Assembly (NCBI GenBank): GCA_963815895.1
Contig: CAWFIP010000001.1
Location: 88,519 to 152,518 of the forward strand
Direction: 5' to 3'
DNA length: 64,000 bases
Origin: an uncultured Actinomycetes bacterium
GTDB lineage: Bacteria > Actinomycetota > Thermoleophilia > Gaiellales > Gaiellaceae
Shown: positions 7,108 to 21,810 of the stretch, piece by piece
Layout: each line of letters opens with the position of its first letter
Numbering within the stretch: the stretch's first letter is position 1
Made by a program: the position numbers and the translations under genes
Notes under the pieces: generated by a model
What the model was told of the DNA's origin: nothing
Database searches by the model: none
What the model saw: only the letters and a program-made list of their open reading frames with translations

Positions 7108-7156
7108 TAACTCCGCCGAAAGCGGTGTGTCCAGGGGTTCTTCGCTTTCTTTGCAT
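7088..7156 (-). CDS. Candidate 22-codon upstream/leader ORF (MQRKRRTPGHTAFGGVSVTCDV) preceding and overlapping the SARP-SIR2 start
   Basis: Minus strand reads GGAAGGAGGgtcgcgcATG: a strong SD (7172-7164), a 7-nt spacer, then ATG at 7156. The ORF is out of frame with the main gene. Its TGA stop (7090-7088) lies 5 nt past the GTG at 7098. It is too short for the ORF track. Confidence 0.3.
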   Translation of the reverse strand: MQRKRRTPGHTAFGGVSVTCDV

Positions 7157-7202
7157 GCGCGACCCTCCTTCCTGATCTGGCTCTTTCCATGAGACGAGAC
7201 AC

Positions 7203-7220
7203 CGCTCAAGAGGCGCTCAA
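7203..7220 (-). promoter_or_regulatory. SARP-type operator box 1: TTGAGCGcctcTTGAGCG (heptamer direct repeat, 11-bp register)
   Basis: Read on the minus strand from 7220 to 7203. It points toward the SARP-SIR2 operon. It is followed by 8 bp (gtgtctcg) and then TCTCAT. The uORF ATG lies 47 nt downstream and GTG 7107 lies 96 nt downstream. Confidence 0.6.
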
Positions 7221-7285
7221 CGGCCGTTGGTGCGCTGTTGGCGCGGTGTGACCGCATGGTTTGGGCGCCCTCCGACGGTGCCGCC

Positions 7286-8344
7286 ATGACTACTTCAGCT
7301 GCACGTCTCGTGAAGAGGGCGCTCCCAGTCCTCGCCGGCTCTCTCGTCTGCCTCCTCGTCCCCGCGGTCGCCGTCCAGGCGGCGCAGCAGGGCGGCTCCC
7401 CCTCAGGATGCTCGGGCGCCTTCGGATGGCCCGTGAAGCCGTTCGACCGGCCGCATCAGATCCGCGGCGCGTTCGGCGACCCGCGAACGCAGTTCGACGG
7501 CCCTCCCACGCTCTCCACCCTCCTCAACGGAGACGGGAAGTTCACGTTCCACGAGGGCGTCGACATCACCGCTCCCGATCGCACTGCGGTGTACCCGGTC
7601 GCATCTGGAACGGTCACGCAGGTCACGGACGAGTGGATCGGCGTCGACTGCGGCAACGGACGCGCGTTCGAGTACTGGCACATCGACGCCCGGGTCCGGA
7701 TCGGCCAGAAGGTCATCGCCGGCAAGACGCTGCTCGGGCGCATCCAGCGCTCCGAGGCCCACGTCCATGTGACGGTGCTGGAGCGGGGACGCGTAGTGAA
7801 TCCGGTCGCGCCGGCCCGCCTGTCGCCGTACCAGGACACGACGATGCCCGAGGTGCTGGACATCGCCGTCCGCCGGGACGAGCGAGGGCCCGACGAGATG
7901 CCGCAGGCCGTTCGCGGCCGCGTCTACCTGATCGCCGAGGCGATCGACACCACGGAGCCGATCGACACGCCCGGCCTGCGCACGCCGACCATCTACCGGA
8001 ACTGGCCCACCACGCCGGCGCGGATCACGTGGCGCGTCGAGCACTGGAACGGCCGGGTCGCCGTTCCCGAGCGCGTCGCACGCGACGTTCGGCAGTCCAT
8101 CCCGTCCGACGACCGCTTCTGGAGCTCATTAGCGCGCGGCACGTATCAGAACCAGTCCGTCTTCGGATCGCACTACTCGTACCTCCAGCACGGCCGTTTC
8201 GTCTTCAAGCTGATGCCGCACCCGTTCGACACGCGCACGCTCCATGACGGCGTCTACGACCTCGTGGTCACGGCGACGGACATCGCCGGACATGGCGACT
8301 CGGCGCGCTTCCGCTTCACGGTCAGAAACGGCGCGGACGTTTGA
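7286..8344 (+). CDS. Secreted M23 (LytM-type) metallopeptidase family protein
   Basis: Signal-like N-terminus MTTSAARLVKRALPVLAGSLVCLLVPAVAVQA from ATG 7286. M23 motifs are HEGVDITAP (HxxxD) and EAHVHVTV (HxH). Confidence 0.8.
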   Translation: MTTSAARLVKRALPVLAGSLVCLLVPAVAVQAAQQGGSPSGCSGAFGWPVKPFDRPHQIRGAFGDPRTQFDGPPTLSTLLNGDGKFTFHEGVDITAPDRTAVYPVASGTVTQVTDEWIGVDCGNGRAFEYWHIDARVRIGQKVIAGKTLLGRIQRSEAHVHVTVLERGRVVNPVAPARLSPYQDTTMPEVLDIAVRRDERGPDEMPQAVRGRVYLIAEAIDTTEPIDTPGLRTPTIYRNWPTTPARITWRVEHWNGRVAVPERVARDVRQSIPSDDRFWSSLARGTYQNQSVFGSHYSYLQHGRFVFKLMPHPFDTRTLHDGVYDLVVTATDIAGHGDSARFRFTVRNGADV

Positions 8345-8367
8345 GCCGATCGTGTCACAGGCGCAAG

Positions 8368-8398
8368 GGGAAGCCCTCTCGCAGCGGAGAGGGCTCCC
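8368..8398. terminator. Hairpin between convergent genes (putative bidirectional terminator)
   Basis: GGGaAGCCCTCTC-gcagcg-GAGAGGGCTCCC: ~12-bp GC-rich stem with a 1-nt bulge. It lies between the stop of 7286..8344 and the stop of 8418..9599. There is no clear U-tract. Confidence 0.5.
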
Positions 8399-8417
8399 AC
8401 CCAATGCGCCGGCGGCT

Positions 8418-9599
8418 CTAGCCCCCCTGTTGAGTCTTGCCGGCGCCGGTTCCGCTGTCGGCCTTCTCGGCCTTCGCGGCCGCTCCCGTTTCCCCCGCGG
8501 AAGCGATGTCGGTCGGTACCTTCGTGAACCGCTCGAAGAAGCCGGAGAAGAACGCGAGGATGCCGTAGTAGGCGTAGTCGCGGTCCACCCCGGGTGTCTG
8601 CGTCTGCAGGATCCCGCTCGCGAGCAAGAGGAACGTCGCGACACCGAAGACCCCACCGACGAAGGGACGGTAGATCCCGAGCCAACGCACGTTGGCCCGC
8701 CCGACCTCGAAGTCGAGTGTGAACTTCGACTCGTCGGTCGAGGCCATGCGCTGCAGCACGCTCAGAAATGCGCCGAGCGCGCCGGCCATGACGCTGATGA
8801 TGAACAGCTGGAGCTCTCCCCAGTGCGCCGGGCCACCGTCGAGGCTGTCGACGGGCCACGTGAGCCCGACGGTCATGGCCGTGACCAGTGCGAGGACGAG
8901 CAGGCCCTGCACCATGCCCCAGAAGAACAGGATCTTCCCCTGCCCCTCGCCGGTGCGCCTGTAGAAGCTCGCGACGTCGGCGAGCTCACTGCGCTGCTCG
9001 TGCACGAACTCCTTGCACTGCGCCTGATGGACCCAGTCCGGCGCTTGCAGCCCGGCGGCCGCGGGCGGTGCTTGACGACCCCACTCGCGGTCGACGTATC
9101 CCAGCAGCTGGCTTGCCACAGCGTTGATGCGGCGCAACGCGATCAGCTCACTCGGGCCGCGCAGGATCTCCTCGACCCGGACGGCAAGCGACTCGCAATC
9201 GTCGAGCGCCCTGGCAACCTCGGGCTCGTCGCGGGTAGCCCAGTCCGTCACGCGGTGAAAGCGCGGGATGTGCTCATGACCCCACAGGCGCACTGTCCTT
9301 CGCCGCTTCTTCACCGAGAACGCGACCGCCGAGGCATCGCGGACCGACCAGTACGCGTTCTTGATCTGGCCGTACTTGTGCTCGAACAGGGCCCACTTGC
9401 GCTTGAAGTCGTCCTCGAGTGTGGAGTCTGACCGGAGACTCTCGCGAGCCCCGTCGTAGAGCTCGAGCTCCCACGCCCGGTGCGCGCGGACGAGATCGGG
9501 AAACGTCACGAACTCGGAAGCATCGTCTCGCCCGGCACCGTTGGTCGCGGCTCCAGGCCCGACCCTCGCCTTCCCCGCGACCGCGGTTCCTGTTGCCAT
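8418..9599 (-). CDS. Hypothetical membrane protein: ~230-aa helical soluble N-domain plus four C-terminal TM helices
   Basis: ATG 9599 is preceded by GGGAGGttcgcgtg. Predicted TM segments: ILFFWGMVQGLLVLALVTAMTVGL, LQLFIISVMAGALGAFLSVL, PFVGGVFGVATFLLLASGIL, YAYYGILAFFSGFF. I recognise no family. Confidence 0.6.
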   Translation of the reverse strand: MATGTAVAGKARVGPGAATNGAGRDDASEFVTFPDLVRAHRAWELELYDGARESLRSDSTLEDDFKRKWALFEHKYGQIKNAYWSVRDASAVAFSVKKRRRTVRLWGHEHIPRFHRVTDWATRDEPEVARALDDCESLAVRVEEILRGPSELIALRRINAVASQLLGYVDREWGRQAPPAAAGLQAPDWVHQAQCKEFVHEQRSELADVASFYRRTGEGQGKILFFWGMVQGLLVLALVTAMTVGLTWPVDSLDGGPAHWGELQLFIISVMAGALGAFLSVLQRMASTDESKFTLDFEVGRANVRWLGIYRPFVGGVFGVATFLLLASGILQTQTPGVDRDYAYYGILAFFSGFFERFTKVPTDIASAGETGAAAKAEKADSGTGAGKTQQGG

Positions 9600-9852
9600 C
9601 ACGCGAACCTCCCACTTGGTCCGCGCCGCATACGGACGAATCGCACGCAGGATAGGCCAGCGACCGTCCAGGCTCAAGAGTTGCTCTGCACGAACGTCTG
9701 CGCGCGCAGGTTGGTGCTGAACACGACCAGCCCTATATCGCGATCTGGACGACCTCTCCACGCGGGTGTGCGCGCGAGATTTCACGGCATGCGCCACGAC
9801 CACTGATCCCCATTCGGGCGCACGAAATTCACAGGTTGAAATTGCACGGCCA

Positions 9853-9892
9853 TTAGCCGCCCGTTAGCCGCCTGTGGCTGCGGCGTTAGCGG
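9853..9892 (+). promoter_or_regulatory. Second 11-bp-phased heptamer array: TTAGCCG (9853), TTAGCCG (9864), degenerate TGGCTGC (9875), TTAGCGG (9886)
   Basis: Direct reading of ccaTTAGCCGcccgTTAGCCGcctgTGGCTGCggcgTTAGCGGtc. It ends 50 nt upstream of the micro-ORF ATG at 9942. Confidence 0.4.
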
Positions 9893-9941
9893 TCGGCCCG
9901 AGCGTGACCGGCGCACCCAAGAACCCGGAAGGAGGGGAACG

Positions 9942-10052
9942 ATGCGCCAGGTCAAGTCACTGCACGCGATGCTGGTCGTGCTTGCGGTTGGTCTGCTCGC
10001 GCTCGCGGCTCCGCTCGTCGCGTATGCCGACGGCGGCCCCAAGGGCGGCTGA
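9942..10052 (+). CDS. Unlisted 36-codon ORF encoding a signal peptide plus a 7-residue tail: MRQVKSLHAMLVVLAVGLLALAAPLVAYA/DGGPKGG
   Basis: Strong SD GGAAGGAGGGG 5 nt before ATG 9942. The N-region (RQVK), H-region and AYA cleavage-type motif are present. TGA at 10050-10052. A 13-bp hairpin follows immediately. It is below the length cutoff of the ORF track. Confidence 0.45.
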   Translation: MRQVKSLHAMLVVLAVGLLALAAPLVAYADGGPKGG

Positions 10053-10073
10053 TGCCACAGCACGAAGCGAGAC

Positions 10074-10102
10074 GAGGGAGGCCCGCATCGCGGGCCTCCC
10101 TC
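10074..10102. terminator. Perfect GC-rich hairpin between the convergent micro-ORF and the SARP-cyclase gene
   Basis: GAGGGAGGCCCGC-atc-GCGGGCCTCCCTC. The right arm overlaps the TAG stop (10104-10102) of the minus-strand gene. Confidence 0.6.
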
Positions 10103-13100
10103 TATGCGGAGACGCTCAGTTCGAGGAGACCTCGCGCGGTCGCGACGCCGACAACGTTGCCCTTTTGTGCGAACAGCGCGATCGCGTCTTCGATGGCTCG
10201 ATTGGCCGCGGCGTGCAACTCGCCAGTGCGCAGTACCTCCGCGAGCGCAAGCCTCGTTGCGGCGATCCGGTTGAGCCCATCGGTCCGATCTGCGAGGCGA
10301 ACGACCTCCTCGGCGAGCTCGCGTGCTTTCTCGACCTCTCCTCTCCGTGCGAGAAGCCTTGCCTCGACCGGGCCGAGCACGAGTTGGACGCTCTGGTCGT
10401 CGCTCGCGGCGTTGGCACGCGCGACGATCATCCACTGTTCAGCCTCGTCGATTCGATCCTGTCTATAGATCGCGTCCGCGAGTTTCGCGGCCCTGACTGC
10501 GAAGTGGCTCAGGTCCTGCGTGCGCTCCAGGTACTCGCATTGGTCACGGAGCGTACGCTCCGCGGCTGGAAGATCGGAGGCGAGCAGCTCGATGTCGGCC
10601 GCCACCGTTCCGCAATGCACGACGGCGGCTCCCGATGCGCCCAACTCCTCGAGTGCATGTCTCGCCTCGGCAATGAGCTCCCGCGCATGGTCGAAGCGGC
10701 CGACCTGCGCATGCAGACCGCCCAGATACGGGATGACCGACGCCCGACCCGCATGCCCGATCGTCTCGTCAGCGAGAAGCCCGGCGCAGCCTTCGATGCC
10801 CATGGTCACAGGAGTTGGCCCCCAATACGTTGCTGCCGCGATTTGTCCTAGACATGTGGCTGGCGGGAATCCGGTGATCCGGTAGTACTCGAGCGCGCGC
10901 TCTTCTGCTTCTCTCCAGGCGGTGTGGTTCCCGTGGATCCCGCCGCGGACGTATCCGAGGAGGAGCCACGCCCGAGCGAGGGAGCGATTGTCCGCTACGG
11001 CCTCGAACACGGGCACTGCCCTTTCGGCCACCTTGATCAGCTCCCGCGCCGCACCTTCGGGCTCAGTGAGAAGGCGCAGGTATGCAGCTTCGATCCTCGC
11101 ACGCAGCTCAACTCGTCGGTGCCCAGCGCGTTCCGCCCCGTCGATTGCCTCGAGCAAGGTCATGTTGCTGGCCTTGGACTGTCCCGCCGCATCACGAGCG
11201 ACGCCGAGTTCGCACATGAGCTCGTAGTGCGCCTCTTGCTCGCGCGGGAGCAACGGAATCGCCCGCTCCAGCAGGCTGATCGTCGCGGGCATGTCGCCGC
11301 GCTTGAGTGCTCGGAAGCCGGCGTCGCCGAGCCGGCGCCCGGCTTCCTCTGCGAGTCGCTTGGTCCTGCGATCGGACTCCCCCAGCTCTGTTCGCAACCG
11401 ATGCGCCTGCTCGAGGTGGTAACCGGCGAACTCATCGAGATCCGCAGGCTCGTCGTCCCGGCCCTCGAAGCGGTCGATGAAGCGCTCGTGCAGGTCCGCG
11501 CGGAGACGCTTCGGGGCCGCGCGGTAGACGGCCTCCTGCACGAGAACGTGGCGGAATCGGAACCGGCCGGGGTCAGACGGCCGCACGAATCCGCGGGCCG
11601 ACAGCGCCTGCATGTGCACCTCGGAGGTTGGCGCCGCCTCAGGCTCGAGCAGCGCGGCAACGTCGTCGAGACGGAACTCCTTCCCGATGACTGCCCCGCG
11701 CTCGAGCACTGCCCGCTCCCCGGGTCCAAGCCGGTCGAGGCGCGCGGCGAGGAGCGCCTGGACCGTCTCCGGAAGCCTTCCCTCGGCGAGCCCGCCTTCG
11801 AGCGCCAGCGCGAGCAGCTGCTCGAGGAAGAACGGGTTGCCCTCGGCAGTCGCGACGATGCGATCGCGTTGATCGGACTCGAGCACGGCCCCGCCGAGGT
11901 GATCGAGGAGCGTATCCGTCTCGTCCGCGGACAAGGCATCGAGCACGAGGTAGTCGGCGCTCGGCAGGCCGTCGAGGAATGCCGGCCGTTCCTCGAGGAG
12001 CTCCTCGCGCGCGATGCAGACGACGAGGATCGGGGCCTCGCCCTTGCCGGCCAGGTGCTCGACGAGCTCGAGGAACGTCGGCTCGGCCCAGTGGACGTCG
12101 TCGAAGACGAGGACGAGCGGCCGCTCGCGGCCCAGCGCCTCGCAGAACTGCCGGAAGAGCCAGGCGATCTCGGGCGCGGGCGGCGGTGTCTCGGCATCGA
12201 GCGCCGCGAGCACGGCGTCGCGTTGCTCGCCTTCCGGGGCATCGGCGAGCACCTCGCGCAGCGGCCAGTAGGTGATGCCCTCCCCGTACGAGAGGCAGCG
12301 ACCCCAGAGTGTCGTCACGTCCTTCGCGCGGCCCGCGAGCTCGGCGACGAGGCGTGACTTCCCCGCACCAGGATGACCGACGACAACCTTCGCGCGGGCT
12401 GTGCCGGTCTCCACGGCTCGCTTCAGCGCTCTGCGGAGCGCCGTCAGCTCGCGCTTGCGTCCGACGAGCGGCGCGTCGAGCCGGCTCTCGAACGCTGGAC
12501 CGACGGGCTCGAGCTCCAGGAGCCGGTACGCACGTACCGGGTCTCGCTTGCCCTTGATCTCGAGCTCGCCGAGCGACTCGAGCTGCGCGGCGTGGTCGAT
12601 CAGCCTGGCGGCCACCTCGCCGACGACGATCTCGCCGTCGCCCGCAGCCTGCTCGAGCTTGGCGGCGATGCCGACCGCCTCGCCGGTGACGAGCCGCTGC
12701 CGGGCGTCGGTCGTCGTCGCGACGACCTCCCCCGACTCCAGGCCGATGCGGACCTCGAGCCCCACTCCGAAGTCCGAGACGAGTCGCTCGTTGAGAACGG
12801 CAAGCCCTGCCCGGACGTCGAGCGCCGCGCGGGCTGCGCGAAGCGCATCGTCTTCGTGGGACACGGGGATGCCGAACGCCGCCATCACGGCGTCGCCGGC
12901 GTACTTCTCGACCGCGCCGCCGTGTCGCGTGATCGCGGCGGACACCGTTTCGAAGTAGCTCTGCAGGACGCGTCCGAGCGCCTCTGCATCGAGCGCTTCC
13001 GCGAGCGCCATCGACTCGACGACGTCACAGAAGAGGATCGTGACGAGGCGCCGGAACTGCATCGACGGCCCGGCGCGCGCGGTCTCCTCGAGCAGCAGGG

Positions 13101-13860
13101 ACTCGTCCTGCCGCAGGATCGCCGACTCCAGCTCCTTGAGCTCGGGCCCCGGATCGAGGCCGAGCTCGTCGAGCAGCGTCTCGCGCGCGGCGCGGAACGC
13201 GGCAAGTGCGTCTGCCTGACGCCCCGACCGGTAGAGCGCGAGCATGAGCTGCCCGCGCGGCCGCTCGCGGAGCGGGTGGGCCTGGACGAGCGCCTCGAGC
13301 TCCGAGACGAGCTCTGCGTGGCGGCCGAGCGCGAGATCGGCGTCGATCCGCTCCTCGAGGACGACGGTGCGCAGCTCCTCGAGGCGGGCGATCTCGTTCT
13401 GCGCGAACGGCTCGTAGACGAAGTCGGCGAGCGCCGGGCCGCGCCAGAGTGCGAGCGCCTCGCGCAGCGACGCCTCGGCGGTCTCCGTGCTCCCGGCCTG
13501 GAGCGCCTCCCGCCCCTCGTCCGTGAGGCGTGCGAACACATGGAGGTCGACCGACCCCCGGTCGAGCTCGAGCGCGTACCCGGGTGGTCGCGTGACGATG
13601 ACGGGCCCCAGCGCCTTCCGGAGCTGCGAGACGTACACCTGGACTGCGTGCGGGGCCGAGTCCGGCGTTTCCCCCGGCCAGAGCGCTTCCACGAGCCGGT
13701 CAGCAGAGACGACGCGACCGAGATCGAGCGCAAGCACCGCGAGCAGCGCCCGCGGCTTCGCGCCCCCGAGCGTGACGAAGCGGCCGTCCTGCACTGCCTC
13801 GAGCGGGCCGAGCAGCCGTAGCTCGAGCTTGCGATCGCCCCCCTGACGCGATCCGCTCAT
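10102..13860 (-). CDS. SARP (wHTH+BTAD) - class III adenylate/guanylate cyclase - STAND/AAA ATPase - TPR multidomain regulator (1252 aa from ATG 13860)
   Basis: wHTH: LRLLGPLEAVQDG...PRALLAVLALDLGRVVSADRLVEALW...GYALEL. BTAD: LWRGPALADF...GQLMLALYRSGRQADALAAFRAARETLLDELGLDPGPELKELESAILRQD. Cyclase: VTILFCDVVESMALAE, KYAGDAVMAAFG, VRIGLESGEVV. Walker A: VVGHPGAGKSRLV. The C-terminus is long, helical and TPR-like. The ORF-track N-extension (to 14115) was rejected. Confidence 0.85.
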   Translation of the reverse strand: MSGSRQGGDRKLELRLLGPLEAVQDGRFVTLGGAKPRALLAVLALDLGRVVSADRLVEALWPGETPDSAPHAVQVYVSQLRKALGPVIVTRPPGYALELDRGSVDLHVFARLTDEGREALQAGSTETAEASLREALALWRGPALADFVYEPFAQNEIARLEELRTVVLEERIDADLALGRHAELVSELEALVQAHPLRERPRGQLMLALYRSGRQADALAAFRAARETLLDELGLDPGPELKELESAILRQDESLLLEETARAGPSMQFRRLVTILFCDVVESMALAEALDAEALGRVLQSYFETVSAAITRHGGAVEKYAGDAVMAAFGIPVSHEDDALRAARAALDVRAGLAVLNERLVSDFGVGLEVRIGLESGEVVATTTDARQRLVTGEAVGIAAKLEQAAGDGEIVVGEVAARLIDHAAQLESLGELEIKGKRDPVRAYRLLELEPVGPAFESRLDAPLVGRKRELTALRRALKRAVETGTARAKVVVGHPGAGKSRLVAELAGRAKDVTTLWGRCLSYGEGITYWPLREVLADAPEGEQRDAVLAALDAETPPPAPEIAWLFRQFCEALGRERPLVLVFDDVHWAEPTFLELVEHLAGKGEAPILVVCIAREELLEERPAFLDGLPSADYLVLDALSADETDTLLDHLGGAVLESDQRDRIVATAEGNPFFLEQLLALALEGGLAEGRLPETVQALLAARLDRLGPGERAVLERGAVIGKEFRLDDVAALLEPEAAPTSEVHMQALSARGFVRPSDPGRFRFRHVLVQEAVYRAAPKRLRADLHERFIDRFEGRDDEPADLDEFAGYHLEQAHRLRTELGESDRRTKRLAEEAGRRLGDAGFRALKRGDMPATISLLERAIPLLPREQEAHYELMCELGVARDAAGQSKASNMTLLEAIDGAERAGHRRVELRARIEAAYLRLLTEPEGAARELIKVAERAVPVFEAVADNRSLARAWLLLGYVRGGIHGNHTAWREAEERALEYYRITGFPPATCLGQIAAATYWGPTPVTMGIEGCAGLLADETIGHAGRASVIPYLGGLHAQVGRFDHARELIAEARHALEELGASGAAVVHCGTVAADIELLASDLPAAERTLRDQCEYLERTQDLSHFAVRAAKLADAIYRQDRIDEAEQWMIVARANAASDDQSVQLVLGPVEARLLARRGEVEKARELAEEVVRLADRTDGLNRIAATRLALAEVLRTGELHAAANRAIEDAIALFAQKGNVVGVATARGLLELSVSA

Positions 13861-13942
13861 CTCCAACCCCACATGTGCCTTTTGGGACGATCTAGCTTCG
13901 CACGCGCAAGCCCCGGCGTCTATCGCGCGGACGATTTCGTGC

Positions 13943-13960
13943 TTGAGCGCTCCTTGAGCG
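13943..13960 (+). promoter_or_regulatory. SARP-type operator box 2: TTGAGCGctccTTGAGCG
   Basis: Lies in the divergent intergenic region. Followed by 8 bp (gcggggtc) and then GACAGT. ATG 14018 is 58 nt downstream. Confidence 0.6.
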
Positions 13961-14017
13961 GCGGGGTCGACAGTGACGTGCATGCACACGAGACCCGCAC
14001 GCCGAAAAGGAGAACTC

Positions 14018-14413
14018 ATGGCTGCCTTCATCGTCCTCCCCGCATCCGCGGGCGAGACGTCTCGCCCAGGAGCTCGGCTCAACATCTTCCCGGGCTCCGC
14101 GACGCCGGCGGTCATGACCGCCGATGCGCCCTTCTGGATCGGCTACGGGTTCGTCCCCGAGCCGAGCGAGCCGGACCCGGAGGGCAGCTGGGCGAGGGAC
14201 GAGGAGACGAGATTCGAACTCCTGGTGGACGCCGACCTGGTGTCGCTCGACACCGATCTGACGGTCGACGGGGAGCGCGCGGTCAGCAAGCTCAGCGTCG
14301 CCATCTTTCCCGATGGGCTCGCGGCGGGCTGGCATCGGTTCTCCGGCCGCTGGTTCGAGGCGGGCTCGCTCGTTCTCACGAGCGAGCGCTCGATCGAGTT
14401 CGTCGAACGTTGA
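14018..14413 (+). CDS. Hypothetical 131-aa protein (no signal peptide seen)
   Basis: AAGGAGaactcATG at 14018: MAAFIVLPASAGETSRPGARLNIFPGS...WFEAGSLVLTSERSIEFVER. I recognise no family. Confidence 0.6.
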   Translation: MAAFIVLPASAGETSRPGARLNIFPGSATPAVMTADAPFWIGYGFVPEPSEPDPEGSWARDEETRFELLVDADLVSLDTDLTVDGERAVSKLSVAIFPDGLAAGWHRFSGRWFEAGSLVLTSERSIEFVER

Positions 14414-14427
14414 GCGCTTCTTGAGCG
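14410..14427 (+). promoter_or_regulatory. SARP-type operator box 3: TTGAGCGcttcTTGAGCG
   Basis: The first heptamer overlaps the TGA stop (14411-14413) of the preceding gene. Followed by 8 bp (ccaccggc) and then GATTAC. GTG 14498 is 71 nt downstream. Confidence 0.6.
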
Positions 14428-14497
14428 CCACCGGCGATTACTTCCTCCGCATGAACAGCATGCACCATGACCCACGCGGAGAGACGGGAGGTCAGTC

Positions 14498-16711
14498 GTG
14501 AAGCACGGAGTCGGACTCTTGCTCGCACTCGGCATCGTGCTCGCGGTCGCGCCGGCGAGCACGGGAAGCACGCTCGCTACGGCGCCGCCGAGCCATGCGG
14601 CCGAGCCGGCACCGGTTGCTTCCCTCGAGCCTGCGAAGACGGAGGCGCTTTGGCGACGCCTCGTCGCAACGCGTGCACGCCGCACGCAGGCGCCCTCGGA
14701 TTGCCGGCCGCTGCGCGGCGTCTTCTATGCGGCAACCGACTACCTGCGCCTCGCGACGAAGCTCGCGGCCACCGCGTCTCCATGCGCCCAGTACTACGTG
14801 TCGGTCCCTCCGATCGTCGCGGACAAGACGAAGCCTCGCCCGAACGCCGCCGGCCGCATCCGCGCGCTCGGCCCGAACTTTCACGCGATGGCCGAGATCC
14901 ACTTCACGACGTGGTCGAGATGGGTTCAGAGCACCGGTTCGAGCTGGTACACGGCCGGCATCACGGCGCGTGAGCGCATGGCTGCCGCCGGCTACGACGT
15001 GGCCAAGGGCGACACCTGGGTGGTCAACGAGCTGAGCACCGCTGTCCGGCGCAACACCGGCAATGCGCGCGCGAACATCCGCGACCTCCTGCGCGGGCTG
15101 TACGAGGGCACCGGCGCACGCGTTCGGGGCGCCGTCTTCGTGGTCGGAGTCGGGCAGCGGACGAGCGACACGTCGCTGCTCCAGACGAACCTCCAGAACT
15201 GGTACTCGGACGCTGCTTTCTGGACGGACATGAGCGCGTACGTCAGCGACTGGGGCCAGGAGGTGTACGGCGACATTCGCAACCACGCCGTTCCCGGGGC
15301 GCCCGAGGCGACGCGTCGCGACTACGTGAACGACTACCTCCAGCATCCGCTGGTGCTCGCGGGCGTCGGCCCTGCGACGATCGAGACGGCCCGTTCGTAT
15401 CTGCAGGCGACCTACAGCCCGTTGGCGAATGCCGCCTGGGAGCGTGAGACGGGCTACGGGTGGACGATGGTGCAGGCCGAGCAGATGGGGGCATACGTCT
15501 CGTCCCAGGTTCACGCCTTGCGGTACTTCAGCGCGACGACCGCGCAGCCGCAAGACCACTGGGGCTTCGCCTGGGCGCCGAGGAACGCCGGAGGAGTTCC
15601 CGCCGGCGAGTTCGCTGCCAAGAGCGGCCTCGTGCTCGACCGCCTCGCCGCGGCGATCCGCGACTCGGCCGAGGTCACCGACCCGACGGATCCGGGAAGC
15701 GCGGCCTGCGGCCCACCGAGTCAGAGCCTCCAGTGCGCGTTCGACGTCGAGGGCGCGACCCTGAACGAGGCCTGGAAGTCGTTCCGCACCTGGACGCAGC
15801 CCGTTCTCGGGTTCGCGACCGCGCCGCAGACGATCACGGCGGGATCGGTGTCCGCGCCGATGAACCTCGCGCTCGTCACGAGCTCTGGGCTCGCCGTGAC
15901 CACGCCGACGGCCCTGTCCATCACTGTCAGCTCGAGCTCTTCGACGGGCACGTTCTCGACGAGCCCGACCGGTCCCTGGTCGCCGACGCTCGCACTCACG
16001 ATCGCAGCCGGAACCCGGACGACCGTCCCCTTCTACTACCTGGACACGAAGGCGGGAAGCCACACGCTGACGTCGGCCGCAGAGGGAGCTACGAACGGCA
16101 CTCAGATCCTGACAGTGCTCCCCGGGCCAATGGCAACGTTCGCCGTGGTGCCCGCGACCGCGGACGTTCCCGCTCGTGGCGTGCAGCGCGTCGCGTCCAC
16201 CGGCGCCGACTCGTACGGCAACGCGTTTCCCGTGGCCGCGAGCTGGTCGCTCGCGCCGACGCCCATCGGGACACTGTCGACCCCGTCCGGGAGTGAGACG
16301 ACGTTCATCGCCGGTCGCACGCTTGGGCCGGCCACGGTCACCGCGACCGCGTCGAACGTCGCGGAGTCGGTGTCCGCGACGGCCTCGCTGCGCGTGGTCC
16401 CCGCCCGGCTCCACATCGAGTCCATCACCTATCGGGCGCAGCGGAACGGCGTGCTCGTGAGCGTGTGGGCCCGGGACGCGGCGGGGAAGTCGATCTCCAA
16501 CGCGATCGTCCGCGGACTAGTCCGCTGGAACGGAGGCGTGTACGTCTCGACGCGTGCCGTGACCGGGCCAGCCGGCCGCACGACGTATCGAATCCCACGG
16601 CCGAAGCTCGGCGGCTGCCTGACGACGACGATCAGGCGCGCGACCGCGAAGGGATTCACCTGGGACGGCAAGACTCCGCGGAACCAGTTCTGCCTGCCCA
16701 AGCCGCGGTAG
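14498..16711 (+). CDS. Large secreted hypothetical protein (737 aa) with an Ig-like/Big-type beta-rich C-terminal region
   Basis: GGGAGGtcagtcGTG start. Signal peptide: MKHGVGLLLALGIVLAVAPASTGS. The C-terminal half is rich in T/S/A beta-strand repeats (ITAGSVSAPMNLALVTSSG, TLTSAAEGATNGTQILTVLPG, VTATASNVAESVSATASLRVVP). Confidence 0.7.
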   Translation: MKHGVGLLLALGIVLAVAPASTGSTLATAPPSHAAEPAPVASLEPAKTEALWRRLVATRARRTQAPSDCRPLRGVFYAATDYLRLATKLAATASPCAQYYVSVPPIVADKTKPRPNAAGRIRALGPNFHAMAEIHFTTWSRWVQSTGSSWYTAGITARERMAAAGYDVAKGDTWVVNELSTAVRRNTGNARANIRDLLRGLYEGTGARVRGAVFVVGVGQRTSDTSLLQTNLQNWYSDAAFWTDMSAYVSDWGQEVYGDIRNHAVPGAPEATRRDYVNDYLQHPLVLAGVGPATIETARSYLQATYSPLANAAWERETGYGWTMVQAEQMGAYVSSQVHALRYFSATTAQPQDHWGFAWAPRNAGGVPAGEFAAKSGLVLDRLAAAIRDSAEVTDPTDPGSAACGPPSQSLQCAFDVEGATLNEAWKSFRTWTQPVLGFATAPQTITAGSVSAPMNLALVTSSGLAVTTPTALSITVSSSSSTGTFSTSPTGPWSPTLALTIAAGTRTTVPFYYLDTKAGSHTLTSAAEGATNGTQILTVLPGPMATFAVVPATADVPARGVQRVASTGADSYGNAFPVAASWSLAPTPIGTLSTPSGSETTFIAGRTLGPATVTATASNVAESVSATASLRVVPARLHIESITYRAQRNGVLVSVWARDAAGKSISNAIVRGLVRWNGGVYVSTRAVTGPAGRTTYRIPRPKLGGCLTTTIRRATAKGFTWDGKTPRNQFCLPKPR

Positions 16712-16728
16712 CGCACCGACCCGCACTC

Positions 16729-16760
16729 GAGAAAGGGCCGCCTCCCGGTGGCCCTTTCTC
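16729..16760 (+). terminator. Intrinsic-terminator-like hairpin directly abutting box 4
   Basis: GAGAAAGGGCCGCC-tccc-GGTGGCCCTTTCTC: 14-bp stem with one G-U pair, 18 nt after the stop at 16711. Confidence 0.6.
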
Positions 16761-16761
16761 G

Positions 16762-16779
16762 TTGAGCGCTACTTGAGCG
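16762..16779 (+). promoter_or_regulatory. SARP-type operator box 4: TTGAGCGctacTTGAGCG
   Basis: Followed by 8 bp (cggccttc) and then GACCAT. SD AAGGAGG and ATG 16815 lie 36 nt downstream. Confidence 0.6.
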
Positions 16780-16814
16780 CGGCCTTCGACCATTGCGGCC
16801 AAGGAGGTGTTCAG

Positions 16815-17663
16815 ATGCACACACAACGAACGAAAAGGCTCGGCCTGGTCGCGGCGGCGCTCGCGGCCCTCGTGCTCGTCGGCGCCCCGGGCGCGCTCGC
16901 GGATCGCAGTTACTCCGATCCAGCAGGCGACTCCGGCTCGGCACCGGACATCACGAGCGTGGCCGTGTCGCACGACGATGTGACGGTGACGTTCACCGTC
17001 ACGACGAACCAGCCCGTGCTCTCACCAGACGCGACCTTCTGGGGGTACATCGATGCCGACTCGAACCCCGCGACAGGGTTCACGGCTCACGGCATCGGGG
17101 CGGAGCACTTCTTCCTCGCTGATGGCAACGGCGGACTGATGGCCCACGTCAACGGCAACATCCTCATGTTCGACTTCCAGTCGAGTCTCACGTCGAGCTA
17201 CGCGAACGGCGTGCTCACCGTTCGCATCGCGCGGAGCGAGCTCGGCTCGATGGAGAGGTTCGCGTTCGCCTTCGAGTCCGACTTGGACGACGCGAACGGC
17301 GACACCATCGCGTCGGACCTTGCTCCGGACGGGCCGCCTTTCTACGCCTACTCCTACGCGCCGCTCACGCTGGCCATCAGCACCCCCGCCGGCGCTCCCG
17401 CCAGGCCGGTGGCAGGCAAGGCCTTCGTGGTCAGCGCAGTCCTGACTCGGAGCGACGAGCAGGCGATCGCGTCCGGTCAGGTCACGTGCAAGGCAAAGGC
17501 CGGCAAGCAGTCGCTGCGCGCGACGGGAAGCCTCGCTGACAGCAGTGCACGGTGCTCGATGCGGATCCCGAAGGGCGCGAAGCGCAAGGTGCTTCGCGGC
17601 TCGATCACGGCGCAAGTCGACGAGGCGACGGTGACGAAGTCGTTCAAGTTCACTGTCCGCTGA
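16815..17663 (+). CDS. Secreted hypothetical protein (282 aa)
   Basis: AAGGAGGtgttcagATG. Signal peptide: MHTQRTKRLGLVAAALAALVLVGAPGALA. I recognise no family. Confidence 0.7.
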   Translation: MHTQRTKRLGLVAAALAALVLVGAPGALADRSYSDPAGDSGSAPDITSVAVSHDDVTVTFTVTTNQPVLSPDATFWGYIDADSNPATGFTAHGIGAEHFFLADGNGGLMAHVNGNILMFDFQSSLTSSYANGVLTVRIARSELGSMERFAFAFESDLDDANGDTIASDLAPDGPPFYAYSYAPLTLAISTPAGAPARPVAGKAFVVSAVLTRSDEQAIASGQVTCKAKAGKQSLRATGSLADSSARCSMRIPKGAKRKVLRGSITAQVDEATVTKSFKFTVR

Positions 17664-17683
17664 GCCAAAGCTGCCCCGTGCAG

Positions 17684-17713
17684 GAGAAAGGCCGCCTCGA
17701 GGCGGCCTTTCTC
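17684..17713 (+). terminator. Intrinsic-terminator-like hairpin directly abutting box 5
   Basis: GAGAAAGGCCGCC-tcga-GGCGGCCTTTCTC: perfect 13-bp stem. Its sequence closely resembles the hairpin at 16729..16760. Confidence 0.65.
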
Positions 17714-17731
17714 TTGAGCGGTTCTTGAAGA
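17714..17731 (+). promoter_or_regulatory. SARP-type operator box 5: TTGAGCGgttcTTGAAGA (second heptamer degenerate)
   Basis: Followed by 8 bp (cgtcgggc) and then GAGCCT. ATG 17796 is 65 nt downstream. Confidence 0.5.
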
Positions 17732-17795
17732 CGTCGGGCGAGCCTCCTTCAACACGGACGACGCGTCGCGATGGCGACGCAGGAAGGAAGGCTCC

Positions 17796-18260
17796 ATGAC
17801 CACCAAGCGATTCAAGCGGCCCAGCCCGGCACTGATCGTGGCGACGGTCGGGCTGTTCGTCGGCCTCGGCGGCACCGCCGGAGCGGTCGTGAACGCGGCC
17901 GTACCGCTCGCCAAGCGGGCCCTGACCGCGGACAACGCGAAGAAGCTCGGCGGCCAGACCTCGCAGCAGATCGCGCAGCAGGCTGCCCAGCTTCCCGGGC
18001 CTGCGAGCTCGGCTGCCGGCCTCGTGACGGTCAAGACCGGCACGTGGTCGCTCGCTCCCGACGGCTACGGCGACTTCACGGTCACATGTGACTCGCCCCA
18101 GAAGGCGGTTGGTGGGGGCTGGGACGACCCGCAGGGCTGGGCGGCCGCATGGGATGACCGGCCGACGGCGGACGGAAGCGGTTGGCGGATGTACCTCACC
18201 CTGTCGCAGAACGCACCCGGAACGCAGACCGGAGGGCTGTATGCCGTCTGCGTCAAGTAG
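17796..18260 (+). CDS. N-terminally membrane-anchored small protein (154 aa), paralog of 19435..19923
   Basis: GGAAGGAAGGctccATG. The sequence KRPSPALIVATVGLFVGLGGTAGAVVNAAVPLAKRALTADNAKKLGGQTSQQI closely matches the N-terminus of 19435..19923. Shared C-terminal landmarks: VTCDSxxKxxGGG and YAxCxK. Confidence 0.7.
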   Translation: MTTKRFKRPSPALIVATVGLFVGLGGTAGAVVNAAVPLAKRALTADNAKKLGGQTSQQIAQQAAQLPGPASSAAGLVTVKTGTWSLAPDGYGDFTVTCDSPQKAVGGGWDDPQGWAAAWDDRPTADGSGWRMYLTLSQNAPGTQTGGLYAVCVK

Positions 18261-18291
18261 GGATGGGCGGAGCCTCACTAGGAGACTCCGC

Positions 18292-19323
18292 ATGACGTTG
18301 CTCGCAGCGGTGCTCGTCGCGAGCGCCGCTGCGACTGGTGCTGCTGCTCCTCGGAGCCTCGACGACCGGGCTGCAAGCGTCGGGTACCTCCTGGCGCAGG
18401 ACGCCGGCGTCCGCCGCAGCACCCCAGTCCGCGCCACTGCGTGGCAGGGCGGTACGTTCACAACGACCACCGGCGAGAGCGTCCGCGTGTTCGTCAGCCC
18501 CTCTTACCCGGACGGCGCGGCGACCGGACAGCGGTGGGCGGAGTTCTTCTCCGCGATGCTGCACGGACCCGAGCTCACGACCGTCAGCGCCTATGTCGTG
18601 ACCCCGTCCGAGATGGCGGACATCTGCAGCGAGTACTCACTCGGCTGCTACGGGGGCAACACGCTGTACTTCATGAACGAGACGGTTCAGGGCGTGACGC
18701 CGGAAGAGGTCGCGCGGCACGAGTACGGCCATCACGTCGCCGCAAGCCGCGCGAACCCGCCGTGGCTCGCCGTTGACACGGGCCCGAAGAACTGGGCTTC
18801 CGTCATGAACGTCTGCCTTCGAGCGAGACAGGGAACGGCGTTCCCCGGCAACGAGGACCGGAACTACACACTCAACCCGGGCGAGGCGTTCGCGGAGACA
18901 TTCCGCGTCCTGAACGAGCTCCGAGCCGGAGCCACCAGCTTCTCGTGGCCGCTCGTCGACAGCTCGTTCTACCCGAATGACGCCGCCCTCAATGCGGCGG
19001 AAAGGGATGTCGCGACCCCCTGGACGGCGCCCGTGGCGCAACAGGTGCGCGCGCGCTTCACGGGCAAGCGGAAGAGCTGGAAGACGAAGGTCTCGACCCC
19101 GCTCGACGGCAACCTGACCGTGTCGCTCGCATTCGCACGGGGTGGGCTGCACGATCTCGAGGTCCTGAGCGCGGACGGGAAGACCGTTCTCTGGACTGGC
19201 CTTTGGGCGGGACGGGCGGAGAAGCGCGTGTCTACCACGGTGTGCGGCGAGCGCTCACTCGTGCTGCGAGTCACACGGCACGGCGTCGGTGGCCCGTTCA
19301 CCGTGCGGGTAACGCACGACTGA
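18292..19323 (+). CDS. Secreted protein with an HExxH zinc-metalloprotease-like motif (343 aa)
   Basis: AGGAGactccgcATG at 18292, 31 nt after the previous stop (operon). Signal-like N-terminus: MTLLAAVLVASAAATGAAA. Motif: EVARHEYGHHVAASR. The ORF-track N-extension (from 18088) overlaps the upstream gene and was rejected. Confidence 0.6.
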   Translation: MTLLAAVLVASAAATGAAAPRSLDDRAASVGYLLAQDAGVRRSTPVRATAWQGGTFTTTTGESVRVFVSPSYPDGAATGQRWAEFFSAMLHGPELTTVSAYVVTPSEMADICSEYSLGCYGGNTLYFMNETVQGVTPEEVARHEYGHHVAASRANPPWLAVDTGPKNWASVMNVCLRARQGTAFPGNEDRNYTLNPGEAFAETFRVLNELRAGATSFSWPLVDSSFYPNDAALNAAERDVATPWTAPVAQQVRARFTGKRKSWKTKVSTPLDGNLTVSLAFARGGLHDLEVLSADGKTVLWTGLWAGRAEKRVSTTVCGERSLVLRVTRHGVGGPFTVRVTHD

Positions 19324-19349
19324 TCTGTGCTGCCTCCTGCCCGCACTCA

Positions 19350-19367
19350 TTGAGCGTTTCTTGAGCA
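19350..19367 (+). promoter_or_regulatory. SARP-type operator box 6: TTGAGCGtttcTTGAGCA
   Basis: Followed by 8 bp (gcaacgcg) and then CAGCCT. GTG 19435 is 68 nt downstream. Confidence 0.55.
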
Positions 19368-19434
19368 GCAACGCGCAGCCTCCACGTGCCAAGGACGCGC
19401 CGGTCTTGCCTCCGGCGCACGAAAGGAGGCAGAA

Positions 19435-19923
19435 GTGCACGTATCACGGATCAAGCGACCGAGCGCTGCGTTCGTCGTCGCGATGATCGCACTCTTCGTC
19501 GCACTCGGGGGAACCGCGGGGGCCGTTGTCACGGCGGCAGTTCCGCTTGCGAAGAAGGCGCTCGTCGCCGAGAACGCGAAGAAGCTCGGTGGCCAGACGT
19601 CGGCGCAGATCGTTGCGTCGGCAGCCGCGAAGGGCACACAGGCTGCGCTGCAGCAGTCGCCCGCGGGCCCGCGGCCCGCGGCGAGCATCGCCGGCCTGGT
19701 GACCATCAAGACGCAGTCGGTGCAGATCGCGGCGGAAGGGGCCAACGGCACCGACGTAACCTGCGACTCAGGTAGCAAGGTGACCGGTGGAGGCCTCACC
19801 TCGGACGGAGCTGTCGTCCTCATCGACAGCTATCCGAAGAGCGACACCACATGGTCGGCCGGAGGTCTCAACCTCGGATCCAGCACGGCGAACGCAACGG
19901 TGTACGCCACCTGCGCGAAGTAG
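19435..19923 (+). CDS. N-terminally membrane-anchored small protein (162 aa), paralog of 17796..18260
   Basis: GAAAGGAGGcagaaGTG. Sequence: KRPSAAFVVAMIALFVALGGTAGAVVTAAVPLAKKALVAENAKKLGGQTSAQI ... VTCDSGSKVTGGG ... VYATCAK. Confidence 0.7.
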   Translation: MHVSRIKRPSAAFVVAMIALFVALGGTAGAVVTAAVPLAKKALVAENAKKLGGQTSAQIVASAAAKGTQAALQQSPAGPRPAASIAGLVTIKTQSVQIAAEGANGTDVTCDSGSKVTGGGLTSDGAVVLIDSYPKSDTTWSAGGLNLGSSTANATVYATCAK

Positions 19924-19933
19924 CCGATCACCC

Positions 19934-19960
19934 GCCGGCGCGGCCCCAGGTCGCGCCGGC
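19934..19960. terminator. Hairpin between convergent genes
   Basis: GCCGGCGCG-gccccaggt-CGCGCCGGC: 9-bp stem, followed by agcaTTTcTg. Confidence 0.45.
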
Positions 19961-19972
19961 AGCATTTCTGTC

Positions 19973-21190: not shown

Positions 21191-21202
21191 GCGTGAGAAT
21201 AT

Positions 21203-21221
21203 AAAACGTCCGTACGGTTTT
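21203..21221. promoter_or_regulatory. Candidate TetR operator: AAAAC-N9-GTTTT inverted repeat with a central CCGTACGG palindrome
   Basis: AAAACgtCCGTACGGTTTT lies in the locally AT-rich 50-bp divergent MFS/TetR intergenic region (gagaatataaaacg...). Confidence 0.35.
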
Positions 21222-21240
21222 GTAAAGTGTGACCTAGCCG

Positions 21241-21810
21241 ATGCCCAAGATCTCCGAGGAACGCAAAGCCGAGCGCCGACAGCAGATCCTCGGCGCCGCA
21301 CGCCGCTGCTTCGCCGAGCACGGCTACGAGGGTGCCACGGTCGCGCGCCTCGAGGAGGCGAGCGGCCTCTCGCGCGGCGCGATCTTCAACTACTTCCCCT
21401 CCAAGGAGGAGCTCTTCGTCGAGCTGGCGGTCGAGGACTCGCGGCGCATCTCCGACCTCTGGGTCAACCAGGGGCTCTCCGCGGTCGTCGGCGAGGTGCT
21501 GGAGCTCGATCCTGCGTGGCTCGGCGTCTACCTCGAGCTCGTGCGGCGGGTGCGCACCGATGCGGAGTTCCGCCGGCGCATCGACCAGCGCCAGGAGGAG
21601 GTCGTCCCCGTCAACCGTGCCCGGATCGAGGAGGCGCAGCGAACGGGCGAGTTCCGGGACGACATCGAGGCTCGGGACATCGGGAGGTTCGTGAACCTCG
21701 TCCTGAACGGGCTCGCGCTCGGGCGCGCCAGCGGCGACGAGATGCCTCCCGCCGAGCCTCGTGCTCGCCTGCTCGACGACGCCGTCGGCGGCGACGGTCG
21801 GCCCGGCTAG
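21241..21810 (+). CDS. TetR/AcrR family transcriptional regulator
   Basis: N-terminal HTH: RRQQILGAARRCFAEHGYEGATVARLEEASGLSRGAIFNYFPSKEELF. Confidence 0.9.
   Translation: MPKISEERKAERRQQILGAARRCFAEHGYEGATVARLEEASGLSRGAIFNYFPSKEELFVELAVEDSRRISDLWVNQGLSAVVGEVLELDPAWLGVYLELVRRVRTDAEFRRRIDQRQEEVVPVNRARIEEAQRTGEFRDDIEARDIGRFVNLVLNGLALGRASGDEMPPAEPRARLLDDAVGGDGRPG

Follow-up and report, generated by a model that had tools for sequence, protein, structure and literature searches.

Results

Six direct-repeat boxes stand before the genes of a SARP island

We found six copies of an 18-bp direct repeat, TTGAGCG-N4-TTGAGCG (here named the class A box), before the genes of one island in a 64-kb stretch of DNA (the window; 69% G+C) from the metagenome-assembled genome (MAG) of an uncultured lineage of the Gaiellaceae. 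The island also encodes two SARPs, a large one (10102-13860, minus strand) and one fused to a SIR2_2 domain (SARP-SIR2; 5485-7107, minus strand). We consider it likely that the six boxes are operators of SARP-dependent promoters, which together make up a small regulon of secreted proteins, and that the large SARP is the likeliest activator. This interpretation is carried by the motif itself, its geometry, its conservation in related genomes and its co-occurrence with the gene of the regulator. A first-pass annotation of this DNA had already read the boxes as SARP operators, and the parts of that proposal open to such comparison (geometry, regulators, conservation and co-occurrence) appear to bear it out.

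Four copies are exact, namely 7220->7203 on the minus strand and 13943, 14410 and 16762 on the plus strand; the copy at 19350 has a single mismatch and that at 17714 has three, all in the second heptamer. All six had been reported earlier, and all were found at these coordinates and on these strands. With TTGAGCGNNNNTTGAGCG at ≤1 mismatch the window gave 5 matches; 100 shuffles that preserved the dinucleotides averaged 0.03, and none of them (0/100) reached 5. The lone heptamer TTGAGCG, with 14 occurrences in the window against 10.2 expected, is not enriched, and the signal therefore lies in the 11-bp tandem arrangement. The distance of 11 bp between heptamers, described before as invariable, indeed holds for six of six copies, and the 4-bp spacer between them is also constrained (nTyC). 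SARPs are reported to bind heptamers of the TCGAGNN type (Wietzorrek and Bibb 1997). Beyond the six, the window contains no TTGAGCG tandem at ≤2 mismatches. The earlier statement that there was no further tandem copy thus stands for TTGAGCG itself, but it missed two arrays of related heptamers, at 9853-9892 and 7227-7266.

Box 1 (7203-7220, minus strand; TTGAGCGcctcTTGAGCG) is aimed at the SARP-SIR2 gene and has the hexamer TCTCAT (7194->7189) 8 bp downstream. Box 2 (13943-13960, plus strand, as are all the following) lies between the gene for the large SARP and the divergent gene for a 131-residue protein, with a -10-like GACAGT at 13969-13974. Box 3 (14410-14427) overlaps the TGA stop codon (14411-14413) of the 131-residue protein gene and precedes the gene for a 737-residue protein; its -10-like hexamer is GATTAC (14436-14441). 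Box 4 (16762-16779) is found right after a terminator hairpin and before the gene for a 282-residue protein, with GACCAT at 16788-16793. Box 5 (17714-17731; TTGAGCGgttcTTGAAGA) also comes right after a terminator hairpin, precedes the gene for a 154-residue protein and has a degenerate second heptamer, TTGAAGA, followed by GAGCCT at 17740-17745; with its three mismatches it is not significant taken alone. Box 6 (19350-19367; TTGAGCGtttcTTGAGCA) precedes the gene for a 162-residue paralog of that protein, with CAGCCT at 19376-19381.

All six boxes are non-coding, although the non-coding share of the island is only 7.3% as judged from third-position GC frame analysis, ribosome-binding sites (RBS) and Pfam, on which the gene calls are based. 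All six are co-oriented with the next gene, whose start codon, preceded by an RBS, follows 35-70 nt beyond the box: the gaps are 57, 70, 35, 64 and 67 nt for boxes 2-6, and 46 nt from box 1 to an ATG at 7156 (minus strand). The first-pass annotation had likewise placed all boxes in non-coding DNA, one of them over a stop codon (14410), and pointing at the adjacent gene, with which our gene calls agree; its distances of 36-71 nt, and 47 nt for the minus-strand copy, differ from ours by a counting convention. A scan of positions 5000-21500 against Rfam at a permissive threshold matched only a terminator hairpin, and that below threshold, so the boxes lie outside known RNA families.

The boxes are conserved in relatives and recur in metagenomes

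We scanned one genome per species for homologs of the 737-residue protein, which gave 80 loci (1.55 Mb). They come without exception from Gaiellaceae, Gaiella, Thermoleophilia or unclassified actinomycete MAGs, L015 being the closest (92% identity). At ≤1 mismatch these loci contain 14 boxes, which are confined to six of them (L001, L004, L012, L015, L032 and L042), are always syntenic with boxes of the window and are always co-oriented with genes. The box forms a conserved block within orthologous intergenic regions that otherwise diverge. Indeed, in a five-genome alignment of the intergenic region between the large SARP and the 131-residue protein genes, box 2 and the A and T of its hexamer are invariant columns while the flanks diverge. 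Box 3 is kept in L015, L001, L032 and L004, and box 4 has syntenic counterparts in L001 (12221) and L042 (12253). Good boxes at the positions orthologous to box 5, upstream of the same gene family in L001 (13183) and L032 (13121), validate this weak sixth copy. Counterparts of box 1 are found upstream of SARP-SIR2 orthologs in L015 (3612, minus strand) and L087 (2141, plus strand), and the arrangement of box 6 is seen again in the metagenome contigs L164, L098, L197 and L130.

The boxes also follow the regulator. The large SARP has an adjacent ortholog, at 61-82% identity, in four loci (L001, L012, L015 and L032), each of which has 3-5 boxes at ≤2 mismatches, while the remaining 76 loci have at most one box each at ≤1 mismatch (Fisher p about 1e-5). 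In the 74 loci without TTGAGCG boxes we found no other consistent 11-bp-spaced heptamer repeat upstream of the 737-residue protein homologs. A different direct repeat with 11-bp spacing, CCTCACAgctcCATCACAGC, lies immediately before the homolog or at its start in L043, L048, L057 and L073, which are distant Gaiella loci; it may belong to a coding sequence or be the site of another regulator.

We also scanned metagenomes with the exact pattern TTGAGCGNTYCTTGAGCG, which is present in at least 120 loci; the counts that follow are among the matches listed. In high-GC contigs, the sequence NANNNT is found exactly 8 bp downstream of 33 of about 60 boxes, and 24 of these 33 then have an RBS and an open reading frame (ORF) 38-194 nt further on (mostly 38-79 nt), the N-terminus of which typically resembles a signal peptide. 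At least 12 contigs hold 2-4 boxes within 1-3 kb, and many box contigs hold homologs of island genes or of the large SARP. Further candidate target families in relatives are RTX-repeat, PKD, PD40 beta-propeller and subtilase proteins, and genes for M23 peptidases adjoin boxes in several contigs. The earlier description of a local regulon was thus too narrow, because the box recurs before many secreted-protein genes in metagenomes and, in addition, in a kdp context (see below).

The other matches of the scan were coding, chance occurrences or members of unrelated low-GC repeat families, and the low-GC matches, when checked for kdp linkage, were not kdp-related. Two unrelated lower-GC families embed the 18-mer in longer conserved sequence (tatttttgcgcTTGAGCGATTCTTGAGCGatttcccaGAGCTT... 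and tacgcaaagcccTTGAGCGATTCTTGAGCGtt...); L090, L094, L103, L127, L134, L149 and L193 contain the 18-mer at a GC of 0.46-0.51, and L083, L086, L089, L104, L117, L118, L137, L144, L182, L187 and L192 at 0.54-0.59. Two more elaborate arrangements were noted. In a variant promoter of L105 (694-746), L140 and L159, beside more distant SARPs (about 50% identity), the order is TTGAGCG-N4-TTGAGCG-N14-TTGAGGG-N8-CACTCT, so that the double box is distal and a third heptamer occupies the site 8 bp from the -10. The 1-kb contig L170 has divergent three-heptamer arrays with 11-bp spacing, at 367-395 (plus strand) and 103-75 (minus strand).

The layout is that expected of an activator-dependent promoter

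We compared the six boxes of the window with 17 boxes of six related loci; in every one, a heptamer is directly repeated with an 11-bp period, leaving a 4-bp spacer. The consensus of these 23 boxes is TTGAGCG-nTyC-TTGAG(c/g)n-N8-[G/C/T]ANNNT. The hexamers 8 bp past the second heptamer were as first listed, and with relatives included they have A at position 2 in 20/23 boxes and T at position 6 in 21/23; both are present in 18/23 against a background of 2.1%, figures that are indicative only. A consensus promoter scan detected no sigma-70-type -35/-10 pair in any of the six box intergenic regions. The canonical -35 thus appears weak or absent, as would be expected of a SARP-dependent promoter. 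With the hexamers taken as -10 elements, the boxes cover about -38 to -17.

Boxes 4 and 5 come immediately after very stable terminator-like hairpins, and the genes downstream therefore form separate terminator-then-promoter units. The first hairpin (16728-16761, plus strand; 15-bp stem, -33.6 kcal/mol, z -6.0) ends 1 nt before box 4, and the 3' arm of the second (17681-17716, plus strand; 16-bp stem, -37.9 kcal/mol, z -7.4) runs into box 5. Both were folded separately, as the terminator rule of the promoter/terminator scan misses them. The two are much alike, GAGAAAGG(G)CCGCC...GG(C)GGCC(C)TTTCTC, and resemble terminators of the bidirectional type that insulate the target genes.

The large SARP is the likelier regulator

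Both island regulators have bona fide SARP domains, a Trans_reg_C winged helix-turn-helix (wHTH) plus BTAD, by Pfam (BTAD E about 1e-48; AfsR E 2e-51), in keeping with the two SARP-domain proteins recognized before, and no further OmpR-type wHTH was detected in the window. The large SARP matches Trans_reg_C (E 5e-10), BTAD (E 2e-49), AfsR (E 2e-51) and EmbR (E 2e-44), and its C-terminal half contains a class III cyclase-like domain (Guanylate_cyc, E 2e-18), an ATPase domain (AAA_16, E 1e-22) and a trace of TPR_12; Pfam gave no LuxR/GerE match in it. With wHTH and BTAD followed by cyclase-like and ATPase domains, and no LuxR HTH, it would by its domains belong to the SARP-LAL regulators. Activators of that class lie within antibiotic clusters, and the 64-kb window contains no biosynthetic gene cluster. 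In the cyclase-like domain (12500-13060, minus strand), aligned to 2w01, the metal-binding Asp residues and the Lys are kept, and the catalytic Asn and Arg are replaced by Gly and Lys, respectively; it is probably a non-catalytic module.

The two SARP domains of the window are 53% identical, and their recognition helices differ, being HAVQVYVSQLRKA (conserved) in the large SARP and TSLQNAVSRLRRE in SARP-SIR2. In AfsR, T88 and R92 are the base-contacting residues (PMC10936776); T88 aligns with V in the large SARP and with N in SARP-SIR2, and R92 with Q and R, respectively. SARPs encoded beside boxes share the helix H(A/S)(V/I)QVYVS(Q/E)LRKA despite an overall identity of 48-83%, and even in the metagenome SARPs of L130, L105, L140 and L159, the domains of which are only 48-50% identical, the helix is kept. 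Those that divergently adjoin boxes (in L105, L130, L133, L140, L159 and L169) are nearer to the large SARP than to SARP-SIR2; as regards the helix the exceptions are L133, where it differs (HAVEVNISKLRS), and L169, where the match stops before it. Among the four loci with a large SARP only L015 has a SARP-SIR2 ortholog, and there a box precedes the ortholog as well. Because multi-box loci track the large SARP and the helix is conserved beside boxes, we assign the boxes to the large SARP, which appears the likelier binder, the SARP-SIR2 gene being more likely a target.

In the mechanism that we infer, by analogy with AfsR, for binding, transcription start, direction of regulation and activating signal, two SARP domains would occupy the pair of 11-bp repeat units side by side, over about -38 to -17. 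The upstream heptamer would sit in place of a poor, over-spaced -35 element, the downstream protomer would lie 8 bp from a weak -10 (SANNNT), and the SARP dimer would recruit the RNA polymerase holoenzyme via 'sigma adaptation'. The activator would be the large SARP, its activity being gated by the cyclase-like, ATPase and TPR modules. Its predicted targets are the 131-residue cytoplasmic protein and four or five secreted or membrane-anchored proteins without assigned function. Box 1 would, furthermore, put the operon of SARP-SIR2 and an nSTAND-WD40 protein under the large SARP, creating a two-tier cascade.

A second class of putative operator precedes a small peptide gene

One of the two arrays of related heptamers mentioned above (class B; 9853-9905, plus strand) consists of TTAGCCG at 9853, TTAGCCG at 9864 and TTAGCGG at 9886, at intervals of 11 and 22 bp. 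The third heptamer is followed, after 7 bp, by a -10-like GAGCGT (9900-9905) and then by a strong RBS and the gene for a 36-residue hydrophobic or secreted peptide, MRQVKSLHAMLVVLAVGLLALAAPLVAYADGGPKGG (9942-10052, plus strand). In L001, L012, L015 and L032 this unit is kept next to the large SARP gene, always at its 3' (TPR) end; its DNA (9853-10052) is 85% conserved, and L001 has two copies of the peptide. With the sites aligned by their -10, a single base separates TGAGCGG of class A from TTAGCGG, the third heptamer of class B, and the same protein could therefore bind both classes. The 36-residue peptide could conceivably, though rather improbably, be the cognate signal of the large SARP, acting through the TPR module in an autoinduction loop.

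The other array (7227-7279, plus strand) is weaker, with TTGGTGC at 7227, TTGGCGC at 7238 and TTTGGGC at 7260, then 7 bp and GACGGT at 7274-7279. Box 1 and this array stand back to back, and the array is aimed at the gene for a secreted M23 peptidase (7286-8344, plus strand), the ATG of which (7286) follows the hexamer after 6 nt, an arrangement that implies a leaderless transcript if the hexamer is read as a -10. Two M23 genes in L087 (2133 and 1094, both minus strand) have the same layout, with heptamers of the TTAGCCC/TTAGGCG/TTGGAGG type.

Alternative explanations

Several observations weigh against the interpretation that we prefer. Boxes at orthologous sites, part of the 23 used for the hexamer statistics among them, do not count as independent, and the p value given above is likewise indicative only. 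The -10 elements were assigned from sequence alone and the hexamers are weak, those of the SARP-SIR2 promoters (TCTCAT, TGAACT and TGATCT) having no A at position 2. L004 and L042 each have one box with no large SARP within 10 kb, and our choice between the two SARPs follows from co-occurrence within ±10 kb only. Finally, the identical 18-mer stands at the stop codon of a KdpE-like gene, or directly behind it, in at least 11 other high-GC contigs among the matches listed (L084, L110, L122, L124, L126, L148, L160, L161 and L168, the module being present also in L153 and L189; in L160, for example, at 3675-3692 on the minus strand). The order in this kdp context is a KdpD-like kinase (DUF4118-HisKA-HATPase), the KdpE-like regulator (Response_reg plus Trans_reg_C), the box, a small conserved ORF, a receiver and kdpA. 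There is no -10-like hexamer 8 bp downstream; instead, a conserved CCTCTTGG or CTC-TTGGnnn comes 24-25 nt after the box, then 7 bp, SACNNT and 6-9 nt to the start codon, a layout that reads as a degenerate proximal heptamer and a leaderless start. The recognition helix of the kdp-type KdpE, HY(V/L/I)HV(Y/H)V(S/A)..(I/L)RRK, e.g. HYVHVYVSQIRRK, resembles that of the large SARP, and a KdpE-type regulator of the OmpR family may read the same 18-mer too. A literature search for an actinobacterial KdpE operator yielded nothing usable.

It is thus conceivable, if unlikely in our judgement, that a KdpE-type response regulator of the OmpR/PhoB kind, encoded elsewhere, reads the island boxes as part of a K+/turgor regulon, either alone or in competition or cooperation with the SARP. 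Besides the kdp contigs, this would agree with the residues H, V, VYVS and R that the KdpE helices share with HAVQVYVSQLRK of the large SARP, with the 7-bp direct repeats and 4-bp spacers that OmpR-family regulators likewise bind (PMC4832192), and with the common site of AfsR and PhoP (PMC10972967, PMC7040171). However, the window contains no KdpE-like or other response regulator gene, and multi-box islands track the adjacent large SARP rather than kdp, which is presumably widespread; more than one box was found in 0/76 loci without the SARP, and even the long kdp-type contigs (L160, 11.8 kb; L189, 14.9 kb) have one box only. The geometry differs as well: in the kdp context about 47 bp separate the double box from the -10-like hexamer downstream, and only the degenerate heptamer TTGGnnn is near that hexamer, at 7 bp. 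Co-occurrence, therefore, favours the SARP for the island boxes, with KdpE as the main rival or co-reader. A scheme in which one operator is shared in this Thermoleophilia lineage, KdpE acting at the kdp promoter and the SARP-LAL at the secretome island, seems to us rather improbable. If true, these promoters would integrate K+/turgor signalling with the signal specific to the SARP, which would be a non-Streptomyces counterpart of AfsR-PhoP cross-talk, and the KdpE-like helix of the SARP-LAL (HxVxVYVSxLR) may then be either convergent or retained.

The island has two SARPs and two operator classes, and the boxes might instead be bound by SARP-SIR2, which would autoregulate through box 1, while the large SARP binds something else, e.g. 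the TTAGCCG triple. The box upstream of SARP-SIR2 in three genomes (the window, L015 and L087) is compatible with autoregulation. However, L001, L012 and L032 have 3-5 boxes and a large SARP with no SARP-SIR2 ortholog within ±10 kb, and the TTAGCCG triple is present in these loci too; moreover, the divergent SARPs that adjoin boxes resemble the large SARP more, with a helix of its type except in L133 and L169. We hold this assignment to be distinctly improbable. Still further from the data is the notion of a duplicated -35-like element read by a sigma factor without an activator, or of a duplicated promoter cassette without a dedicated regulator, to which we give very little credence. TTGAGC does match TTGACA at 4/6 positions, and boxes 16762 and 17714 follow very similar hairpins, as a duplicated terminator-promoter cassette might. 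However, sigma-70 needs a spacing of 16-18 bp, the -10-like hexamer comes 9 bp after the second TTGAGC and 20 bp after the first, and the promoter scan found no such pair; in addition, the strict maintenance of both heptamers, of the TyC spacer and of the 11-bp register across diverged genomes points to a DNA-binding protein that acts as a dimer. We rejected a mobile or duplicated cassette because the six copies are unrelated in sequence outside the box.

Genes of the island

The island is flanked by uvrB on one side and by MFS, TetR, SLT, rpsA-coaE and polA genes on the other. Downstream of SARP-SIR2 lies a gene for a protein with nSTAND1 NTPase and WD40 domains (Pfam; 2513-5488, minus strand), the ATG of which (5488) overlaps the SARP-SIR2 stop codon; the two genes are probably co-transcribed and translationally coupled. 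They make an unusual operon under a class A box, and the SIR2_2 domain has a weak PADLOC match to the SIR2 region of ThsA. The ATG at 7156 (minus strand) opens a frame of 22 codons that ends at 7088 (window 7088-7158), which had been taken for an upstream ORF. Its homolog in L015 is in frame with the SARP, the window being 2 nt shorter just past the ATG, and in that frame the residues LD...LVS.VTFDF are conserved between the two. We think, therefore, that the earlier upstream ORF is probably a frame artefact, and that this ATG is probably the true N-terminus of SARP-SIR2, displaced by a real or assembly-derived indel, rather than the start of a leader peptide. Between the M23 peptidase gene and the class B operator lies a gene for a membrane protein of no assigned family (8418-9803, minus strand).

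The first predicted target gene encodes the 131-residue protein (14018-14413, plus strand, like all that follow), which has no signal peptide, belongs to no known family and always adjoins the large SARP. It is followed by the genes for the 737-residue secreted protein (14498-16711), for the 282-residue secreted protein of no known family (16815-17663), for the membrane-anchored 154-residue protein (17796-18260) and for a 343-residue protein (18292-19323), the last two forming a two-gene unit (17796-19323) that is seen again in L001, L142 and L164, and for the 162-residue paralog (19435-19923). Sequence searches of Pfam, NCBIfam, PADLOC and the PDB assigned no family to the target proteins. 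In the 737-residue protein, three C-terminal Ig-like domains follow an N-terminal alpha/beta domain in which many His, Asp, Glu, Cys and Trp residues are invariant. Its family is very large and unannotated (>1600 database matches, the best at 60-87% identity), and an exact look-up of the protein gave no match. In an AlphaFold2 model of mean confidence (pLDDT) 69, the N-terminal domain is partly confident and the three Ig-like domains are confidently modelled. Foldseek matches in the PDB were dominated by Ig-like repeats, with weak and unreliable full-length matches to glycoside hydrolases, and a profile search against the PDB returned the LigB Ig-like domain only.

Discussion

SARPs have been studied almost only as switches of antibiotic clusters in Streptomyces. 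The results above support a SARP-LAL-type regulon of secreted proteins in uncultured soil Gaiellales, working by what would be an already familiar mechanism. For a regulator of this type they supply an operator that is both precise and conserved, a defined set of putative targets and a candidate for the regulator itself. The putative targets are secreted and surface proteins (in relatives, RTX, PKD, PD40, subtilase and M23 proteins) and a second SARP, not a biosynthetic pathway, which would widen the range of functions that SARPs are expected to control while leaving the known mechanism unchanged. The boxes also constitute a set of candidate activator-dependent promoters with terminator-insulated units, usable for heterologous tests, and their presence at kdp promoters suggests that a SARP and a response regulator may share an operator.

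Comparison with known systems

In published SARP promoters the direct repeats are 11 or 22 bp apart, and 8 bp separate the 3' repeat from the -10 (PMC10936776, PMC7040171). The closest parallel is AfsR at the afs box of afsS in Streptomyces coelicolor, where two 11-bp units overlap the -35 region and the spacer (PMC10936776; PMC11301090). In the cryo-electron microscopy structure of the AfsR initiation complex, two protomers lie side by side on the 22-bp box over a poor -35, and sigma region 4 is adapted (PMC10936776; PMC7040171). The -10 of afsS is a suboptimal CACTGT (PMC10936776), and the 3' repeat here is 8 bp from what would be a weak -10, GACAGT, CACGCT and similar; as at afsS, the upstream repeat would coincide with a poor -35 and an over-long spacer; like AfsR, the large SARP has ATPase and TPR modules. 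The heptamer, however, is TTGAGCG, whereas the unit of the afs box is CGTT(T/C)ATCGNN (PMC10972967), the regulator has a cyclase-like domain between BTAD and the ATPase, and the predicted targets are secreted proteins and a second SARP rather than afsS. The lineage is also different, being Gaiellales/Thermoleophilia and not Streptomyces.

In its domain plan the large SARP is like the SARP-LAL regulators PimR, SanG, PolR, FilR and PteR (PMC5930380, PMC3367932, PMC10972967). The likeness extends to operators in which two or three directly repeated heptamers are separated by 4-bp spacers, to a regulator gene that is often divergent from its target gene, and to a cyclase-like domain that is probably non-catalytic. 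In contrast to PimR, which has the heptamer CGGCAAG in an operator off the -35, TTGAGCG occupies the classical -35-overlapping position; and while the one target of PimR is a pathway regulator in an antibiotic cluster, here six or more promoters would be controlled, with no cluster within 64 kb. OmpR/PhoB operators, such as the pho box and those of M. tuberculosis PhoP, likewise have 7-bp repeats with a 4-bp spacer and bind a tandem wHTH dimer (PMC4832192), but the boxes described here track a SARP gene, and no response regulator is encoded in the window. The half-sites of E. coli KdpE are AT-rich 6-bp repeats (PMC3264566), unlike TTGAGCG. For the boxes in the kdp context, the site shared by AfsR and PhoP is a matching precedent (PMC10972967).

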